Shown one piece after another: positions 11,494 through 44,120 of a DNA stretch of 64,000 bases; positions within the stretch are counted from its first letter, which is position 1, and every line of letters begins with the position of its first letter. The position numbers and the translations under genes were made by a program. A model generated the notes under the pieces. That model saw only the letters and a program-made list of their open reading frames with translations, was not told where the DNA came from and searched no databases. The DNA is from Escherichia coli (GTDB taxonomy: Bacteria > Pseudomonadota > Gammaproteobacteria > Enterobacterales > Enterobacteriaceae): assembly GCF_965641715.1 (NCBI RefSeq), contig NZ_OZ282453.1. One strand, 5' to 3'.

Positions 11494-11570
<77 letters not shown>

Positions 11571-11603
11571 TCACCGTACTGCTTTTACTTCATCAAATTT
11601 GAT

Positions 11604-11680
<77 letters not shown>

Positions 11681-11713
11681 TCACCGTACTGCTTTACTTC
11701 ATCAAATTTTAAT

Positions 11714-11790
<77 letters not shown>

Positions 11791-13124: not shown

Positions 13125-13310
13125 ATATGACAGGGTGAGGGGTAACCTCACATCCTGATTATTGACTAAGTGCGCGTTGTTCATGCCGGATGCGGCGTGA
13201 ACGCCTTATCCGGCCTACAAATCATGCAAATCCAAAATATTGCAGGAGTTATGTAGGCCTGATAAGCGTAGCGCATCAGGCATTTATGCGTTTAGGGTGA
13301 GGGATAACCT
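13125..13310. repeat. BIME-like cluster of REP palindromes between mltA and tcdA
   Basis: gccggatgcggcgtgaacgccttatccggcctac and gtaggcctgataagcgtagcgcatcaggc REP units flanked by gtgaggggtaacctcac-type palindromes. Confidence 0.6.
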
Positions 13311-16275: not shown

Positions 16276-16481
16276 AAAAAAAAGCACCGCAATTAGGCGG
16301 TGCTACATTAATCACTATGGACAGACAGGGTAAATGTACAGGAAGTGAAAAAAGGTAGCTTTGCTACCATGGTCTGAATCGCAGACCAATTGCAAACACA
16401 ACAACACAACATCACAACCGTAAGCCAAAAGTTCACCAGAACACGCATTCCGACAAAACTTTTCGTTCCGGCTCAGGAAGT
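16276..16481 (-). ncRNA. gcvB: GcvB small regulatory RNA (Hfq-dependent, represses amino-acid/peptide transporters)
   Basis: Minus-strand sequence starts ACTTCCTGAGCCGGAACGAAAAG, contains the GU-rich TGTGATGTTGTGTTGTTGTGTT region, and ends in a GC hairpin plus U8; divergent from gcvA. Confidence 0.85.
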
Positions 16482-34479: not shown

Positions 34480-34652
34480 GACTCTGTAGGAGATCGCCAG
34501 GAAATAAGCGAATACTTAAAAAGATAAGAATCGTTATTTTCATTTAAAAACAACATGTTGCTTGTTAATTCCTAACTTTCATATGAAATTTTCCTTAAGG
34601 CATTGTCTGTAAGCGCCTTGTAAGACTTCGCGAAAAAGACGATTCTATCTTC

Positions 34653-35019
34653 GTCGACAGGGAGTCAGACAACGAAGTGAACATCAGGATGATGACACTT
34701 CTGAAGGACACACCAGGATGGTGTTTCAGGGAAAGGCTTCTGGATGAAGCGAAGAGGATGACGCAGGACGCGTTAAAGGACACCTCCAGGATGGAGAATG
34801 AGAACCGGTCAGGATGATTCGGTGGGTCAGGAAGGCCAGGGACACTTCAGGATGAAGTATCACATCGGGGTGGTGTGAGCAGGAAGCAATAGTTCAGGAT
34901 GAACGATTGGCCGCAAGGCCAGAGGAAAAGTTGTCAAGGATGAGCAGGGAGCAACAAATGTAGCTGGAATGCTGCGAAACGAACCGGGAGCACTGTGAAT
35001 ACAGTGCTCCCTTTTTTTA
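34653..35019 (+). ncRNA. csrB: CsrB small RNA (CsrA-sequestering RNA)
   Basis: Starts GTCGACAGGGAGTCAGACAACGAAGTGAAC; about 18 GGA-containing CAGGAUG-like motifs; ends in hairpin gggagcactg...cagtgctccc plus T7. Confidence 0.9.
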
Positions 35020-35063
35020 TTCCTGCTATCCTTCGCGGCAGTTTTTCTTATTGAGGTTGCTTT

Positions 35064-36642: not shown

Positions 36643-37076
36643 TATGTTCAGCGAGCGGTAAATGTCGTTTTAGCGGTGCTGAATCGAATCTTTTCAGGCA
36701 AATGCCAGTAAAAACTGCTTCATAGCGCGGATTTTTACTGGCGTTTGCCTGGAGTCAAGCGATCCATTTCATACTCTTCTTTATTTCTTCGTTTTAACCC
36801 TTCCTTTCTTGTTCTTGTTTTCATTTCCGTGAAGTGGATTCCACCGTCCAGGGCTAATGCCAAAATCGGGCCTCATTGAACGCATTAATGTTGTGTTGTT
36901 GCACGGTGAGCCGCTATGGCGCGCTTTTTATACTGCTATTGCCAGATATAAACACGCGCCGTATTCGGCGAACGACCTATAAAAACGGCAAAAAACACCC
37001 TACGTCACCTCTGATTTCCTGGCGATGTCGCAGTCCAGAGTGAGCGTGGCTAACGCGAATTTTCAGGAGTGCAACA

Positions 37077-38429
37077 ATGAGTTCTTTAAGTCAGGCTGCG
37101 AGCCGTGTGGAAAAACGCACGAATGCTCGTTACTGGATAGTGGTGATGTTGTTTATCGTCACATCCTTCAACTACGGCGACCGCGCTACGCTTTCTATTG
37201 CCGGTTCGGAAATGGCCAAAGATATCGGCCTTGATCCCGTGGGAATGGGCTATGTGTTCTCTGCCTTCTCATGGGCTTATGTTATCGGGCAGATCCCTGG
37301 TGGTTGGTTGCTGGATCGTTTTGGTTCAAAACGCGTCTACTTCTGGTCGATCTTTATCTGGTCGATGTTTACCTTGCTGCAAGGCTTCGTCGATATCTTT
37401 AGTGGATTCGGCATTATCGTTGCCCTGTTTACTCTGCGCTTCCTGGTCGGGCTTGCTGAAGCGCCATCTTTCCCCGGCAACAGTCGCATTGTTGCGGCCT
37501 GGTTTCCGGCGCAGGAAAGGGGAACGGCGGTGTCGATTTTTAACTCCGCTCAATACTTCGCAACGGTGATCTTCGCGCCGATTATGGGCTGGCTGACGCA
37601 TGAAGTGGGCTGGTCACACGTCTTCTTCTTTATGGGCGGTCTGGGGATTGTCATCAGCTTTATCTGGTTGAAAGTCATCCACGAGCCAAATCAACATCCG
37701 GGGGTAAATCAGAAAGAGCTGGAGTACATCGCCGCGGGTGGCGCGCTGATCAATATGGATCAGCAAAACACCAAAGTTAAAGTGCCGTTCAGCGTGAAGT
37801 GGGGGCAGATCAAACAGCTGCTCGGATCACGGATGATGATCGGCGTTTATATCGGTCAGTACTGTATCAACGCCCTGACTTACTTCTTCATTACCTGGTT
37901 CCCGGTTTATCTGGTGCAGGCGCGCGGGATGTCGATTCTGAAAGCGGGCTTTGTGGCTTCCGTTCCGGCGGTTTGCGGTTTTATCGGCGGTGTGCTGGGT
38001 GGGATAATTTCCGACTGGCTGATGCGCCGCACGGGGTCGCTGAACATTGCGCGTAAAACACCGATCGTAATGGGCATGTTGCTGTCGATGGTGATGGTGT
38101 TCTGCAACTACGTCAACGTTGAGTGGATGATCATCGGCTTTATGGCGCTGGCCTTCTTCGGTAAGGGCATCGGGGCGCTGGGTTGGGCAGTAATGGCAGA
38201 TACCGCGCCAAAAGAGATCAGCGGTCTTTCCGGTGGCCTGTTCAACATGTTCGGTAACATTTCTGGCATCGTCACGCCAATCGCAATTGGTTATATCGTT
38301 GGCACGACTGGCTCGTTTAATGGGGCGCTGATTTATGTTGGTGTTCATGCCTTAATCGCGGTACTGAGCTACCTGGTGCTGGTGGGCGATATCAAGCGTA
38401 TCGAGCTGAAACCTGTCGCGGGGCAATAA
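37077..38429 (+). CDS. gudP: Glucarate/galactarate MFS transporter
   Basis: 450 aa MFS protein. Confidence 0.9.
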
Positions 38430-38430
38430 G

Positions 38431-39771
38431 ATGACGACACAATCCAGTCCTGTTATTACTGATATGAAAGTCATTCCGGTCGCCGGGCACGATAGCATGT
38501 TGCTTAATATTGGTGGGGCACATAACGCATATTTCACCCGCAATATTGTGGTACTCACCGATAACGCCGGGCATACCGGCATTGGTGAAGCGCCGGGCGG
38601 AGAGGTGATTTATCAGACGCTTGTCGAAGCTATTCCGATGGTGCTGGGCCAGGAAGTCGCGCGCCTGAATAAAGTGGTTCAGCAGGTGCATAAAGGTAAT
38701 CAAGCAGCCGATTTTGATACCTTCGGCAAAGGTGCCTGGACTTTTGAATTGCGCGTTAATGCCGTAGCGGCGCTGGAAGCCGCCTTGCTTGACCTGTTAG
38801 GTAAGGCGCTGAATGTTCCGGTCTGCGAACTGTTAGGGCCAGGCAAGCAACGCGAGGCTATTACCGTCCTCGGTTATCTGTTTTATATCGGTGATCGGAC
38901 CAAAACCGATCTTCCTTATCTGGAAAATACGCCGGGCAACCATGAGTGGTATCAGTTGCGGCATCAGAAAGCGATGAACAGCGAAGCCGTTGTGCGTCTG
39001 GCGGAAGCCTCACAGGATCGCTACGGCTTTAAAGATTTTAAACTTAAGGGCGGCGTGTTACCTGGCGAGCAAGAAATCGACACTGTTCGTGCATTGAAGA
39101 AACGCTTCCCGGATGCGCGGATTACCGTTGATCCCAACGGTGCATGGCTGCTTGATGAAGCCATTTCTCTGTGCAAAGGGCTGAATGATGTTCTTACCTA
39201 TGCCGAAGATCCATGCGGCGCAGAACAGGGCTTCTCCGGACGTGAAGTGATGGCGGAGTTTCGGCGGGCGACCGGCTTGCCCGTCGCGACTAATATGATC
39301 GCCACCAACTGGCGCGAAATGGGCCATGCGGTGATGCTCAATGCGGTAGATATTCCACTTGCCGATCCGCACTTCTGGACGCTTTCCGGTGCAGTCCGCG
39401 TGGCGCAGCTTTGCGACGACTGGGGGCTGACCTGGGGCTGCCATTCCAACAACCATTTCGATATCTCTCTGGCGATGTTTACCCATGTGGGCGCGGCGGC
39501 ACCGGGTAATCCTACCGCTATCGATACCCACTGGATTTGGCAGGAGGGCGACTGTCGCCTGACCAAAAATCCGCTGGAGATTAAAAACGGAAAAATTGCC
39601 GTTCCTGATGCGCCCGGTCTGGGCGTGGAACTGGACTGGGAACAGGTACAAAAGGCACATGAGGCCTATAAACGTCTGCCTGGCGGTGCGCGTAACGACG
39701 CAGGTCCGATGCAGTACCTGATCCCCGGCTGGACCTTTGACCGTAAACGTCCCGTTTTCGGCCGTCATTGA
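38431..39771 (+). CDS. gudX: Glucarate dehydratase-related protein (enolase superfamily)
   Basis: 446 aa, paralog of GudD. Confidence 0.9.
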
Positions 39772-39791
39772 TTCTGAAAAAGGACATAAAT

Positions 39792-41132
39792 ATGAGTTCT
39801 CAATTTACGACGCCTGTTGTTACTGAAATGCAGGTCATCCCGGTGGCGGGCCATGACAGTATGCTGATGAATCTGAGTGGTGCACACGCACCGTTCTTCA
39901 CGCGTAATATTGTGATTATCAAAGATAATTCTGGTCACACTGGCGTAGGGGAAATTCCCGGCGGCGAGAAAATCCGTAAAACGCTGGAAGATGCGATTCC
40001 GCTGGTAGTGGGTAAAACGCTGGGTGAATACAAAAACGTTCTGACGCTGGTGCGTAATACTTTTGCCGATCGTGATGCCGGCGGGCGCGGTTTGCAGACA
40101 TTTGATTTGCGTACCACTATTCATGTAGTTACCGGGATAGAAGCGGCAATGCTGGATCTGCTGGGGCAGCATCTGGGGGTTAACGTGGCATCGCTGCTGG
40201 GCGATGGTCAACAGCGTAGCGAAGTCGAAATGCTCGGTTATCTGTTCTTCGTCGGTAATCGCAAAGCCACACCGCTGCCGTATCAAAGCCAGCCGGATGA
40301 CTCATGCGACTGGTATCGCCTGCGTCATGAAGAAGCGATGACGCCGGATGCGGTGGTGCGCCTGGCGGAAGCGGCGTATGAAAAATATGGCTTCAACGAT
40401 TTCAAACTGAAAGGCGGTGTACTGGCCGGGGAAGAAGAGGCCGAGTCTATTGTGGCACTGGCGCAACGCTTCCCGCAGGCGCGTATTACGCTCGATCCTA
40501 ACGGTGCCTGGTCGCTGAACGAAGCGATTAAAATTGGTAAATACCTGAAAGGTTCGCTGGCTTATGCAGAAGATCCGTGTGGTGCGGAGCAAGGTTTCTC
40601 CGGGCGTGAAGTGATGGCAGAGTTCCGTCGCGCGACTGGCCTGCCGACTGCAACCAATATGATCGCCACCGACTGGCGGCAGATGGGCCATACGCTCTCG
40701 TTACAATCCGTTGATATCCCGCTGGCGGATCCGCATTTCTGGACGATGCAAGGTTCGGTACGTGTGGCGCAAATGTGCCATGAATTTGGCCTGACCTGGG
40801 GTTCACACTCTAACAACCACTTCGATATTTCCCTGGCGATGTTTACCCATGTTGCCGCCGCTGCACCGGGTAAAATTACTGCTATTGATACGCACTGGAT
40901 TTGGCAGGAAGGCAATCAGCGCCTGACCAAAGAACCGTTTGAGATCAAAGGCGGGCTGGTACAGGTGCCAGAAAAACCGGGGCTGGGTGTAGAAATCGAT
41001 ATGGATCAAGTGATGAAAGCCCATGAGCTGTATCAGAAACACGGGCTTGGCGCGCGTGACGATGCGATGGGAATGCAGTATCTGATTCCTGGCTGGACGT
41101 TCGATAACAAGCGCCCGTGCATGGTGCGTTAA
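39792..41132 (+). CDS. gudD: D-glucarate dehydratase (enolase superfamily)
   Basis: ORF track starts 39768; likely true start at [13 protein letters not shown] (39792). Confidence 0.9.
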
Positions 41133-41255
41133 GACAGAAAACCAAAACCGGCTCTATCTGGAGCCGGTTTGAGACTGATGCTAAACGCAAAATAGCCTGT
41201 TGTGCTATGTATCAGGTCTACATCATTTTTTAATTCATTGAATTTAATTGGTTTT

Positions 41256-41291
41256 GTAGGCCGGATAAGGCGTTAACGCCGCATCCGGCAT
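41256..41291. repeat. REP element between gudD and barA
   Basis: gtaggccggataaggcgttaacgccgcatccggcat palindrome. Confidence 0.6.
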
Positions 41292-41363
41292 AAACACAGG
41301 CACTTTGTCACCAATCTGAAACCAGCGTCATAAAAAGCCGATTGCTACTCGACAAGACGTCCG

Positions 41364-44120
41364 TTACCCGAGAATTTTGCTGGCTTCGCGCGCGACATTA
41401 TCCATCTCGTCCAACAGTTCCAGCAGCTCCGGCTCCAAATCTTCTTCTTTAGTACCGCTACGTAGCTGTTGTTCGATCAGTTGGCAGAGATTCTTCATAC
41501 GCGGCACACCGCTATAGCCGCAACTGCCATGCAGTTTATGAATCAAATCAACCAGGCCTTCCGGGTTTTCTCCAACCAGCTGTTCCTCAACTTTGTTGCG
41601 AACTTCAGGCAGGAAATCGAGTAACATTTGCAGCATATCGCGCGCTAAATCGGTTTTTCCTGCTGCCTGGCGTAGTGCCAGTTGCCAGTCGAGGGTCGCA
41701 TTCGGGTTCACCACAATTTCGTTGACTTCAGGCGTCACGACGCGAGACGAAATACCGCTGCCAGGCTTGTAGCGCAACAGCAAATTATGCAATCGCTCTT
41801 CTTCAATCGGTTTCGCCAGATAATCGCTCATCCCTGCGCCAAGCAGCTTCTCTTTTTGCCCGGCCATTGCATGCGCCGTTACCGCGATAACCGGCGTTTG
41901 TTGCTGATGGGGGAGCTGGTGGATGAGTTCGCAGGCCCGAATGCCATCCATGTCAGGCATTTGAATATCCATTAAGATCAAATCGAACGGCATCTGTTTC
42001 GCCCGTTCAACCGCCTGATGCCCGCTATCGCAAAGTTCCACATGTTGCACCATATCTTCCAGCAATGCGCCGATAAGTTTCAGGTTAGCGGGGTTGTCAT
42101 CAACCGCCATGACTGTCATTGCCAGCTTACTTTCATCGGTTACAGGCAAAAGCGTGTTTTGTTTGTGATGACAAAATTCCGTCAGGGCAGGCAACAGGCG
42201 CGTAGGTGTTAATGGTTTCAGCAGACACGCGCCGATACCATCTTGCTTAAGTTTTTCAGCATTGACTTGTGCATGGCAAGGAAGTGCCAGCATCAGGAAA
42301 TCGGTCATCGATACCGCTTTCGCTAATCGCTCATGTTGCATTGTTAGCGGCTCGCGGAAGGTCACCGCGATGCCTAACAACATCATGTCGTAATGCGCGG
42401 GAGGCAGCGCGGAGAACGTTGGGCTATAAACCACTTCCAGCGGCGTTTCACTTAAAATATCCAGCGTGCATTGCGCTGCTGCGGAGTTTGGTTCGACATA
42501 GGCCAGGCGTTTACCGGCGAGGCACTGGGTGGATGGCCCTTCAATAATAATGTTCGGGTTCAGATCGAGATTAATGTGGAACCAGAAAGTTGAACCGCGA
42601 TTCGGCTGGCTATGGAACGAAATATCGCCGCCCATTTCATTAACCAGTTTTTGTGTAATCACCAGCCCCAGCCCGGTGCCACCATGACGGCGGGAAATAC
42701 TGGCATCAGCCTGTCGGAAGGCCTGGAATAAGCGCGATTGATCGCGTTCAGGAATACCAATGCCGGTATCCCGAATCTGCACTTCAATCTGCACTTTGGT
42801 ATTACTCAGCGCACGTTTTTCTACCAGAATATCAATGTTGCCATTCTCGGTGAATTTAATTGCATTCCCCACCAGGTTAGTGATGATTTGCTGTAATCGC
42901 AGTGGGTCGCCGATCACGTTATCAGGCACGTCGCTCTTAATATTGAGCGTCAGTTCCAGACCTTTATCGTGAGAAGAATGTGCCAGCAGGGTAACGACTT
43001 CATCCAGCGTGCTGCGTAGTGGGAATGGAATACTTTCCAGAATCAGCTTACCTGCTTCCAGTTTCGAGAAGTCGAGAACATCATTAATAATTGCCAGCAA
43101 ATTATTTGCCGAACGTTCAATCGTATTCAGGTGATCGCGCTGCGTTGGTGTTAATTCTGTTTTCAGCGTCAGGCGGGTAAAGCCAATAACACCATTCAGT
43201 GGTGTACGCAGCTCGTGTGACATATTTGCCAGAAACTCGGATTTAATACGCGCCGCTTCCTGGGCGCGCTTTTTCGCCAGATCCAACTCAACGTTCTGAA
43301 TTTCCATCTGCTCCAGCGTTTCACGCAGATCGGACGTCGCCTGGTCGATATTGTGCTGCATCTCTTCGTGATAAGCAGCCAGCGACATTGCCATCGAGTT
43401 GATACCGTTTTTCAGCATATCCAGCTCGCCGAGCATAAATCCTTCCACCCGGCTGTCGAGTTGCCCGCGACGGATGCGGTCGACGGTATTCACCATGTTG
43501 CGAATCGGACCGGTTACATCGCGCATTAAGCGCCAGCCAAAAATAAGCGCAATACCGATACAAAACAGCATCATCACGCTGGAAATAAAGATCTCTTTAT
43601 ATTGCTGCAAGCGAACCGATTTAAGATCCAGCTCCAGCGCAATATATCCCAGCATATTTTGACTATTTTTGGCATCGCTACTGGGCGATTCGTCGGGGGA
43701 GTAACTCTCAGAAATAATCGGCGTGCGGAGGATCATAATATCGCCGTCACGAGTGACAGTGAGCTGGCGAGGAAACGGCACGTTGCTGCCGAGCTGCATA
43801 GATGAGGGATCAAGATGAAAATTGGAGGTGACAAAGAGTCGGTTATTTTCATCATAAACCGAAATCGCGCGAACAATATCGGAATGGCGACGATGCAGTA
43901 CGCTTATTAACTGACCGATAGATTCGCGATTTTGCAAGCTCATGCCATATTCAGTAGAAACTGCAAGCGGCTCAATAATGCTGGCACCGGCATCTTCCAG
44001 TTGACGCTGCAAGTCGTTATAGCGATGCACGACGAAAAAGATACTCAGCAATAAACCAATAAGGACGGTCGGTGCCAGGATCAGAATCATCATGCGTGCG
44101 CGCAGGCTGTAGTTGGTCAT
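41364..44120 (-). CDS. barA: Hybrid sensor histidine kinase BarA (HAMP-HisKA-HATPase-REC-HPt)
   Basis: 918 aa recognised as BarA. Confidence 0.95.

Follow-up and report, generated by a model that had tools for sequence, protein, structure and literature searches.

The adjacent gudX and gudD genes of Escherichia coli: probably ancient, separately conserved paralogs of the enolase superfamily

Two adjacent genes of equal length, whose products share long identical peptide blocks, raise the question whether they stem from a fairly recent tandem duplication or have long been separate. Here we examine such a pair, gudX and gudD, in a window of 64,000 nucleotides from Escherichia coli (contig NZ_OZ282453.1 of assembly GCF_965641715.1). 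A preliminary description took the pair for a tandem duplication with one copy (gudX) of weak or altered activity and a DNA similarity high enough to create a recombination-prone repeat. According to our results it is very probable that GudX is an ancient, separately conserved paralog, that GudD is a bona fide dehydratase and that the pair is no substrate for recombination. The segment is read here as the distal two-thirds of the gudP-gudX-gudD operon, which would serve uptake and dehydration of D-glucarate. The locus contains the following features:

37077 to 38429, + strand: gudP, MFS galactarate/glucarate/glycerate transporter, 450-aa ORF, first gene of the operon
38431 to 39771, + strand: gudX, 446-aa ORF, glucarate dehydratase-related protein (GlucDRP)
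39772 to 39791, + strand: gudX-gudD spacer of 20 nt with a Shine-Dalgarno-like AAGGA, read from the sequence
39792 to 41132, + strand: gudD, 446 aa from ATG, D-glucarate dehydratase, TIGR03247 equivalog
41145 to 41170, no strand assigned: GC-rich terminator-like hairpin between the convergent gudD and barA, 13 nt past the stop of gudD

The first gene is K-12 b2789 (two residues differ from K-12) and scores 538.6 bits in a profile search with TIGR00893 (cut-off 395). A single nucleotide separates the gudP stop from the ATG of gudX. All three genes lie on one strand with spacers of 1 nt and 20 nt, in the same order as in K-12; of 5426 complete E. coli genomes, 5425 have gudPXD, and the gene order recurs in about 40 species from three orders. 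Gene order and short spacers thus point to a gudPXD-type operon. In the ORF list gudD begins at an in-frame TTG further upstream (39768), but the AAGGA 8 nt upstream and the length of the K-12 gene indicate ATG 39792 as the probable start. A promoter scan found no consensus sigma-70 site on the + strand upstream of gudP. The hairpin downstream of gudD, which a pattern scan scored on the - strand (10 pairs, of which 6 are G-C), is only suggestive, since terminator-like sites are no more numerous in the region than in shuffled sequence.

Both genes are textbook knowledge for E. coli; crystal structures exist for the two proteins, and their paralogy is annotated everywhere. The gudX of the window is the same gene as K-12 gudX (b2788, ygcY; GlucDRP; PDB 4IL0 and 4GYP chain C, to both of which the protein is nearly identical), with 97.5% nucleotide identity, 441 of 446 residues shared and the same place between gudP and gudD. 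The five substitutions between the two GudX proteins (window residue first, K-12 residue last: T2A, E58D, E66D, L164V and K379Q) all lie outside the catalytic and clade-signature positions. GudD is identical to the K-12 protein (b2787, GlucD; PDB 1EC7 and others), and the 23 nucleotide differences between the two genes (98.3% DNA identity) are all synonymous.

That the two genes code for enolase-superfamily paralogs of about 446 aa in tandem, as had been proposed, is borne out: two adjacent ORFs on the + strand, both of exactly 446 aa, are supported by Pfam matches and by annotation. GudX matches MR_MLE_C (PF13378, 173.5 bits) and MR_MLE_N (PF02746, 35.4 bits). For GudD the C-terminal domain is found (PF13378, 163.9 bits), while the N-domain is not reported at E <= 0.001; GudD aligns with GudX over the full length, and both proteins are assigned to the two-domain fold of the MR/MLE type. 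The NCBIfam equivalog model for glucarate dehydratase (TIGR03247, curated whole-protein cut-off 828.7 bits) separates the two: GudD scores 898.7 bits and GudX 749 bits. In keeping with the lower score, GudX goes in RefSeq under 'enolase C-terminal domain-like protein' or under 'glucarate dehydratase family protein'.

Membership of the GlucD subgroup was judged by a KxK motif at the end of strand beta-2, the metal ligands Asp (beta-3), Glu (beta-4) and Asn (beta-5), and a dyad of Asp (beta-6) and His (beta-7). Subgroup residues in 1BQG are K211, K213, N295 and D319 (PMC4570537). Both proteins of the window carry the complete set, GudD as K205/K207, D235, E260, N289, D313 and H339, and GudX as K204/K206, D234, E259, N288, D312 and H338. 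We regard GudD as the bona fide D-glucarate dehydratase of this subgroup, whose reaction, abstraction of the proton alpha to a carboxylate and elimination of water, gives 5-dehydro-4-deoxy-D-glucarate.

How similar the copies are depends on the level at which they are compared. At the protein level identity is 63-64% (BLASTP: 283/448 identities, 63%, 591 bits, E = 0.0) and the long identical blocks are real: a block of 25 residues quoted earlier occurs in both proteins, inside a run of 28. A second quoted pattern, HFWT..VRVAQ, is likewise present in both, although its two parts are spaced by four residues and not by two. The shared stretches are located as follows:

39199 to 39282, + strand: 28-aa identical block, GudX copy, aa 257-284, containing Glu259 and Glu265
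40563 to 40646, + strand: 28-aa identical block, GudD copy, aa 258-285
39469 to 39488, + strand: longest exact shared DNA word, 20 nt, CTGGCGATGTTTACCCATGT, with its partner at 40833-40852

The supposed high DNA similarity did not survive the check: codon-aligned identity is 64.9%, with 42% at third positions. Even in the 28-aa block the DNA of the two copies is only 81% identical and 16 of 27 degenerate codons differ; we therefore reject gene conversion as the origin of the identical blocks in the window. In none of the 40-codon windows of gudX and gudD are shared codons clearly in excess. The identical blocks would thus be active-site barrel strands kept by selection on the protein, and would record neither a recent duplication nor gene conversion.

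As a recombination-prone repeat we would regard an exact stretch of at least about 25 nt together with high overall identity. RecA-dependent recombination in E. coli has a minimal processing segment of roughly 25 nt, and mismatch repair blocks recombination at divergences far below that found here (65% identity). No exact word shared by the two genes exceeds 20 nt (the maximum is the same in K-12), and for this reason the claim of a recombination-prone repeat fails for the window. At megablast sensitivity no cross-hit between gudX and gudD was found among the 5426 complete E. coli genomes, each with one place for the pair, and the gudX-gudD junction is intact in 5402 of them (99.6%). Two E. 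coli deletions that were examined show 3-nt microhomology or removal of gudP as well, neither involving X/D homology. Because the identical blocks seem to reflect selection at the protein level, homologous recombination in this genome probably finds no substrate of note in the pair.

In relatives of E. coli the picture is less uniform, and rearrangements do occur, though rarely. In the conserved block some relatives carry exact X-D words of 40-59 nt, and Pantoea stewartii has a gudX::gudD hybrid, the product of an unequal crossover, with the switch point right after this block; the hybrid joins the cap and first barrel strands of X to a C-terminal half of D type. Consequently, X-D recombination is not impossible on evolutionary time scales. 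The longest run, 19 consecutive identical codons (59 nt) in an Enterobacter species (L023), is unlikely by chance and makes micro gene conversion in relatives a possibility; other long shared runs are not clearly significant given a codon bias of 0.55-0.63.

The age of the split was approached through silent sites and trees. Synonymous sites are saturated between gudX and gudD (pS 0.70, dS about 2), and identical residues use the same codon in 47.7% of cases, where codon usage predicts 43.7%. Single-copy enzymes of Pseudomonas, Bacillus and Bradyrhizobium are closer to GudD (73-77% identity) than its neighbour GudX is (63-64%). In outgroup-rooted neighbour-joining trees of corrected p-distances the X clade is monophyletic in 85 of 100 bootstraps, and in none of the 100 does GudX join the local GudD; GudX forms a clade of its own outside all GudD-type enzymes, a position to be read with the reservation that this method could pull a fast-evolving GudX artificially towards the root. 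A recent tandem duplication should show low synonymous divergence and two copies that are each other's closest relatives, and these data point to neither. The split is thus probably ancient: the GudX clade would have separated before GudD-type enzymes radiated across Proteobacteria and Firmicutes, and would since have been kept beside gudD in Enterobacterales, Orbales and Pasteurellales.

Adjacency, equal length, 63% identity, identical blocks of up to 28 aa, the hybrid of P. stewartii and the words of up to 59 nt in relatives might all be cited for a fairly recent duplication that left a recombination-prone repeat and a gudX copy weakened under subfunctionalisation. Given saturated silent sites, the absence of the local-duplication topology from all bootstraps, a 20-nt longest word at 65% identity and an almost universally intact locus, we nevertheless consider this explanation highly improbable, the more so as gudX and gudD have equal dN/dS. 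Since the copies are saturated at silent sites, the reading as a recent duplicate and recombination hazard should not be carried forward.

Selection on gudX is as strong as on its neighbour, and subfunctionalisation, taken apart from a recent origin, is conceivable. Compared with Citrobacter and Enterobacter, dN/dS is 0.017-0.04 for both genes, so gudX is not decaying but under purifying selection equal to that on gudD. E. coli GudX shares 84-86% of its residues with GudX of Erwinia or Pantoea, intact gudX is found in over 99% of E. coli genomes, and 264 columns of the X clade are at least 95% conserved. It might be argued that GudX, redundant and only weakly active, serves as a back-up glucarate dehydratase and is heading for loss: it scores below the equivalog cut-off, it differs from K-12 by five residues and GudD by none, and intact gudX has been lost in P. 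stewartii and some E. coli strains. A weak glucarate dehydratase activity of GlucDRP was reportedly described by Hubbard et al. in 1998. Yet a dN/dS of 0.02-0.04 over Enterobacterales, the same as for gudD, and the conservation just described make such a fate very unlikely.

Every catalytic position examined is kept in GudX (GudD numbering): K205, K207, D235, N237, E260, E266, N289, D313, H339, N341, D366, H368, Y150, H32, T103 and R422. The suggestion that GudX is altered relative to a canonical glucarate dehydratase nonetheless holds, in that it falls short of the equivalog score and has clade-specific changes in a capping loop, as seen when 44 GudX-type and 78 GudD-type sequences are compared. 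The loop lies at:

38689 to 38769, + strand: GudX capping-domain loop, aa 87-113, with changes fixed in the GudX clade

In GudD numbering the loop changes are R88H, a 2-aa GN insertion, R94F, Q102W, D105E, the loss of two residues after R107, H111N and T114A; D294N and S338C lie next to catalytic positions. The resulting clade signature (GudX numbering: W103, E106, N110, A113, N293, A321 and C337, together with two inserted residues at 89-90 and two missing ones after R108) is complete in the GudX of the window, which places the protein in the GudX/GlucDRP clade. W103, E106, N110, N293 and A321 are present in 100% of the 44 X-type sequences, A113 in 98% and C337 in 95%, and each signature residue occurs in at most 1 of the 78 D-type sequences. 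GudX combines the full acid/base and metal-binding machinery with a remodelled loop that caps the substrate.

The loop signature is also found in PDB 4il0 and 3n6h. The protein of 3N6H, 3N6J and 3PFR, deposited as 'mandelate racemase/muconate lactonizing protein', carries the GudX signatures and matches window GudX with 791 bits, against only 648 bits for E. coli GudD, though it is more divergent from window GudX than enterobacterial orthologs are. Its source is presumably one of the Pasteurellaceae, and 3PFR was, as we take it, deposited with D-glucarate bound. Single-copy GlucD enzymes (Pseudomonas putida PDB 1BQG; Bacillus, Bradyrhizobium and others) have the GudD subgroup and catalytic residues and are 73-77% identical to window GudD but about 65% to GudX; they are without the remodelling of the cap loop and without an X-type neighbour.

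What GudX does is a fair, if modest, question in enolase-superfamily enzymology: in three bacterial orders a seemingly redundant paralog is as well conserved as the characterised enzyme encoded beside it. The discovery value of the locus itself is small. A literature search returned no usable literature on the biochemistry of GlucDRP or gudX. Most likely, we infer, GudX works in the pathway of GudD, either as a subunit of a mixed oligomer or as a dehydratase or epimerase with shifted acid-sugar specificity. We tentatively suggest that it is no spare dehydratase and acts with GudD as a modifier within a heterotetramer or else on another acid sugar. If true, glucarate dehydratase in enterobacteria is the product of two genes, and the label 'related protein', in use for 25 years, hides a distinct function.

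The surroundings of the two gene types bear on both forms of this proposal. A D-type gene lies within 6 kb of 41 of the 44 X-type genes, while D-type genes stand alone at 36 loci. Together with the spacers of 1 nt and 20 nt, the persistence of X beside D in three orders and PDB 4gyp, which holds chains of both GlucDRP and E. coli GlucD, this would suit a GudX that is chiefly a partner subunit, with a mixed GudX/GudD tetramer as the physiological enzyme whose activity, stability or specificity GudX tunes. A complex in a crystal is, however, no proof of a physiological one, a purely structural role needs no full conservation of catalytic residues, and GudD has homo-oligomer entries such as 1ec7. 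GudD is active alone. Basal X-type genes without a D-type neighbour, in Paludibacterium and in Halomonas (next to kdgD), argue against an obligate partnership with GudD, and a role chiefly as partner subunit is in our view conceivable but rather doubtful.

To the same degree we hesitate over the other proposal, that GudX is an independent enzyme, acting on a different aldaric or acid-sugar stereoisomer or as an epimerase, whose product enters the same downstream pathway and whose gene simply shares a transcript with gudD. In Halomonas the lone X-type gene directly follows kdgD (5-dehydro-4-deoxyglucarate dehydratase, 391.6 bits against a cut-off of 373.95), with no D-type gene within 6 kb. This arrangement, the full catalytic set under strong purifying selection, the clustering of clade changes in the specificity-setting capping loops and next to H339 and N289, and the score below the equivalog cut-off all speak for a separate activity. 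The nearly universal adjacency to gudD (41/44) fits it less well, as does D-glucarate in the X-clade structure 3PFR, a ligand that we presume, the comparison covering the sequence family only. A phenotype from another genus was also considered. A Tn-seq study of Dickeya solani counts gudX among the genes needed for fitness on galactarate (PMC10202176). There gudP-gudX-gudD-garL-garR-garK lie on one strand with garD separate (PMC10202176 supplement), and because of this gene order polarity on the downstream garLRK explains the phenotype; we therefore rejected it as functional evidence for gudX.

Concrete handles for experiments are offered by the natural X::D hybrid of P. stewartii and by the fixed cap-loop differences. 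The protein collection also holds GudX-like proteins of 583-690 aa, four of which were rejected as genuine long forms: P0002 and P0003, both singletons, read through into the frame of gudD, and P0001 and P0011 contain internal duplications. Each of the four comes from one contig and presumably reflects an error of sequencing or assembly. P0008, on the other hand, is a real in-frame fusion allele that arose via 3-nt microhomology at non-homologous positions.

The gudX and gudD genes lie next to each other on the + strand, following gudP:

37077-38429, + strand: gudP, MFS transporter, open reading frame directly upstream of gudX
38431-39771, + strand: gudX, open reading frame of 446 aa
39792-41132, + strand: gudD, 446 aa from its ATG start

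The gudP stop codon and the gudX ATG are separated by 1 nt. The listed gudD open reading frame (39768-41132) opens at an in-frame TTG, upstream of the biologically supported start at ATG 39792, which is preferred because an AAGGA Shine-Dalgarno sequence sits 8 nt upstream of it. Using megablast, the 4.4-kb gud stretch is found in 5425 of 5426 complete E. coli genomes, where it is annotated as gudP, gudX and gudD followed by convergent barA. The K-12 MG1655 counterparts are b2789 (gudP), b2788 (gudX, 'glucarate dehydratase-related protein') and b2787 (gudD, 'D-glucarate dehydratase'); the gene names given in the preliminary description match both sources. Relative to K-12, gudD is 98.3% identical in DNA without amino-acid differences, whereas gudX is 97.5% identical with 5 amino-acid differences; the window thus derives from an E. 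coli strain that is not K-12. Only 12 of the 5426 genomes reach 99% identity with window 37000-41400 (99.4% at best) and most match at 95-99%, so the gud allele is an uncommon one; several of the 12 come from water or wild animals. The convergent gudD/barA spacer holds a REP-like palindrome (GCCGGATAAGGCGTTAACGCCGCATCCGGC) at about 41257-41295, downstream of a hairpin at 41145-41170.

At the protein level the two genes are clearly tandem paralogs, as had been described: both products count 446 aa and align with 283/448 identities (63%, far from a low-identity outcome) and 78% positives (BLASTP, 591 bits, E = 0.0). The peptide quoted as shared occurs in both proteins within an identical run of 28 aa (39199-39282 in gudX, 40563-40646 in gudD), besides which there are 7 further identical runs of 8-16 aa. 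In the second quoted pattern HFWT and VRVAQ are indeed present, though separated by four residues and not two. The high DNA similarity that had been claimed is not found: codon-aligned identity is 64.9% (71%, 82% and 42% for codon positions 1, 2 and 3), silent sites are saturated (Nei-Gojobori pS 0.70, dS about 2; dN 0.30) and the longest exact word shared by both genes measures 20 nt (39469-39488 and 40833-40852), equal in length to that in K-12. Of the identical residues, 266 have degenerate codons, and 47.7% of these use the same codon in both genes, against 43.7% predicted from codon usage alone; even the 28-aa block has different codons at 16 of its 27 degenerate positions (DNA 81% identical). 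As no part of the gudX-gudD alignment has a clear excess of shared codons, the identical peptides are kept by protein-level selection; recent copying or gene conversion as their source is ruled out by this codon comparison.

We scanned one genome per species, which yielded 80 loci, and classified every GlucD-like open reading frame in them. The order gudP-gudX-gudD occurs in about 40 species of Enterobacterales (Citrobacter, Enterobacter, Pantoea, Erwinia, Dickeya, Pectobacterium, Serratia, Rahnella, Budvicia and others), Orbales and Pasteurellales, while 36 of the 80 loci carry GudD-type genes only, nearly always as a single copy (Pseudomonas, Bradyrhizobium, Variovorax, Bacillus, Paenibacillus, Acinetobacter and others). 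The window GudD is 73-77% identical to these distant single-copy enzymes against only 63-64% to its neighbour GudX, which itself shares 64-66% identity with each GudD-type protein regardless of taxon. Placed apart from all D-type sequences by neighbour joining, the X clade is also monophyletic in 85 of 100 bootstraps of rooted trees with more distant family members added as outgroups. A topology with duplication within the enterobacterial/pasteurellalean lineage was recovered in 0 of 100 bootstraps, with the remark that these are distance trees, in which a once fast-evolving GudX might be pulled rootward by long-branch attraction. Judged from these sequences, the split is older than the divergence of the three gammaproteobacterial orders, whether or not such attraction acts. 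Both the saturated silent sites and the tree topology thus speak against the earlier picture of a tandem duplication with high DNA similarity.

The pair had further been called a recombination-prone repeat, which is wrong for this genome. In E. coli, exchange by RecA depends on perfect identity over about 25 nt or longer; at divergence far below 35%, mismatch repair already suppresses it strongly. A query joining the 3' half of gudX to the 5' half of gudD finds one megablast place per genome, and the junction is intact (query covered at least 80%) in 5402 of 5426 complete E. coli genomes, consistent with a 20-nt word that falls short of the needs of recombination. Neither of the two disrupted E. 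coli alleles examined is homology-driven. The first (protein P0008; L082 3001-4752, GCA_966552115.1) is an in-frame fusion of 583 aa joining gudX nt 1-686 to gudD from about nt 274. The deletion behind it, of about 0.95 kb, used a 3-nt microhomology (TGC), with the junction at non-homologous positions; the fusion is present on 24 contigs. The second, in PSJ-12 (NZ_AP027622.1, L083 3443-4397), one of the 24 complete genomes that lack an intact junction, is a deletion from the gudP start into gudD that left nothing of gudX, only a minor part of gudP, and gudD without its 5' part; both remnants are annotated as pseudogenes.

Elsewhere exchange between the copies did take place. Pantoea stewartii subsp. 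stewartii (L031 6001-7335) carries, in place of the pair, a single gudX::gudD hybrid after gudP, of which the N-terminal about 285 residues are X-type and the remainder D-type. The switch lies between X-specific Val285 and D-specific Asp294, inside ATNMIAT and immediately past the 28-aa block; the flanks are collinear with those of other Pantoea, and some 1.35 kb has been lost. Four NCBI accessions carry the identical protein, among them strain DC283 and a 4.6-Mb chromosome, and we conclude that the hybrid is a genuine unequal-crossover product. Over 40 species the median length of the longest exact X-D word is 24.5 nt, with the highest value in an Enterobacter locus (L023: 59 nt, 19 consecutive identical codons, inside the 28-aa block); a second Enterobacter (L008) has 49 nt (15 consecutive identical codons) inside the conserved block. 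Both words sit at codons 257-276 of gudX and gudD and may, from their sequence, represent short gene-conversion tracts. Nothing comparable is seen in E. coli, where the window reaches 20 nt and an identical-codon run of 6. The idea of recombination between the copies therefore fails for the window, yet has some ground over evolutionary time.

Checking the catalytic residues in both copies, we find every listed GlucD active-site residue kept in GudX (GudD numbering): H32, T103, Y150, K205, K207, D235, N237, E260, E266, N289, D313, H339, N341, D366, H368 and R422. Beyond the subgroup-defining positions, this list is what we take to be the active site following GlucD structure papers. The defining positions are KxK at beta-2, Asn at beta-5 and Asp at beta-6 (PMC4570537). 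There are 19 alignment columns fixed differently between the X and D clades, and their positions form clusters.

Clade-fixed differences between X-type and D-type proteins (clade comparison)
Capping-domain loop around T103 (GudD numbering): R88H, 2-aa insertion, R94F, Q102W, D105E, 2-aa deletion after R107, H111N, T114A
'20s' loop adjoining H32: L28I, S29G, P34A
Beside catalytic/metal-binding residues: T286V and D294N flanking N289, S338C adjoining H339, G418P near R422
Other columns: G78A, I110V, Q140K, S322A

Capping loops set substrate specificity in the enolase superfamily, and the clustering of changes in these loops suggests a change in how the substrate is handled, with the chemistry left intact. 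This agrees with the score of GudX against the glucarate dehydratase equivalog TIGR03247, which at 749 bits falls below the curated cut-off of 828.7 (GudD 898.7 bits, above it). Solved structures are available for E. coli GudX (4il0) and for an X-clade homolog in which the X signature is present (3n6h/3n6j/3pfr).

In comparisons with Citrobacter, Enterobacter, Kosakonia and Pseudescherichia, gudX has a dN/dS of 0.017-0.040 and gudD one of 0.023-0.039, and the X clade has 264 alignment columns with at least 95% conservation. With values equal in range to gudD and such conservation, GudX is not decaying, and a decaying spare copy is an unlikely description of it. Between E. coli and Erwinia or Pantoea, GudX is 84-86% and GudD 85-88% identical; in farther relatives (Pasteurellales, Budvicia, Serratia) this becomes 72-78% against 82%, so that GudX evolves somewhat faster at greater distances. 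A locus labelled Escherichia coli strain SCPM-O-B-8794 (L027) encodes GudX and GudD proteins 99% identical to those of the window at a dS of about 0.4, far above usual within-E. coli divergence, and is probably a cryptic Escherichia lineage held as a separate GTDB species.

The system as such is already known, and the remaining interest concerns only the role of the tightly conserved paralog GudX, for which no primary paper on function was found in the literature searched. GudX is reported to have only weak glucarate dehydratase activity. GudX might, tentatively, be a partner subunit of GudD: of 44 X-type genes, 41 have a D-type gene no more than 6 kb away, which in 40 cases the X-type gene immediately precedes, D-type genes are commonly alone, and PDB entry 4gyp holds chains of both proteins together. 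GudD itself converts D-glucarate to 5-dehydro-4-deoxy-D-glucarate (PMC3877842). Set against this dependence are the kept catalytic residues and two basal X-type genes without a D-type gene nearby, one in Halomonas eurihalina directly after kdgD, encoding 5-dehydro-4-deoxyglucarate dehydratase (L041 4866-7338), the other in Paludibacterium yongneupense, where it follows gudP and two genes for glycerate kinase (L029 566-7335). These argue for catalytic competence of its own, and an enzyme with its own substrate is a similarly doubtful possibility; we therefore rate both readings about equal. The importance of gudX reported from Tn-seq of Dickeya growing on galactarate is uninformative, because in Dickeya the operon runs on into garL-garR-garK and insertions would be polar on these genes.

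In the database, the 90% protein cluster of the window GudX mixes GudP transporter sequences with GudX sequences, which looks like a clustering artefact and not a genome feature. The window also holds the small RNA CsrB (Rfam RF00018, 384 bits) at 34662-35021 (+) between syd and yqcC, which accounts for the strong purine skew at 34500-35000 in the composition profile. Further matches are the sRNAs GcvB at 16276-16481 (-, 197 bits) and ES036 at 13218-13260 (+, 46.5 bits); at 11494-11790 (-) lie three tRNA-Met (CAT) genes in tandem, spaced 110 nt apart.
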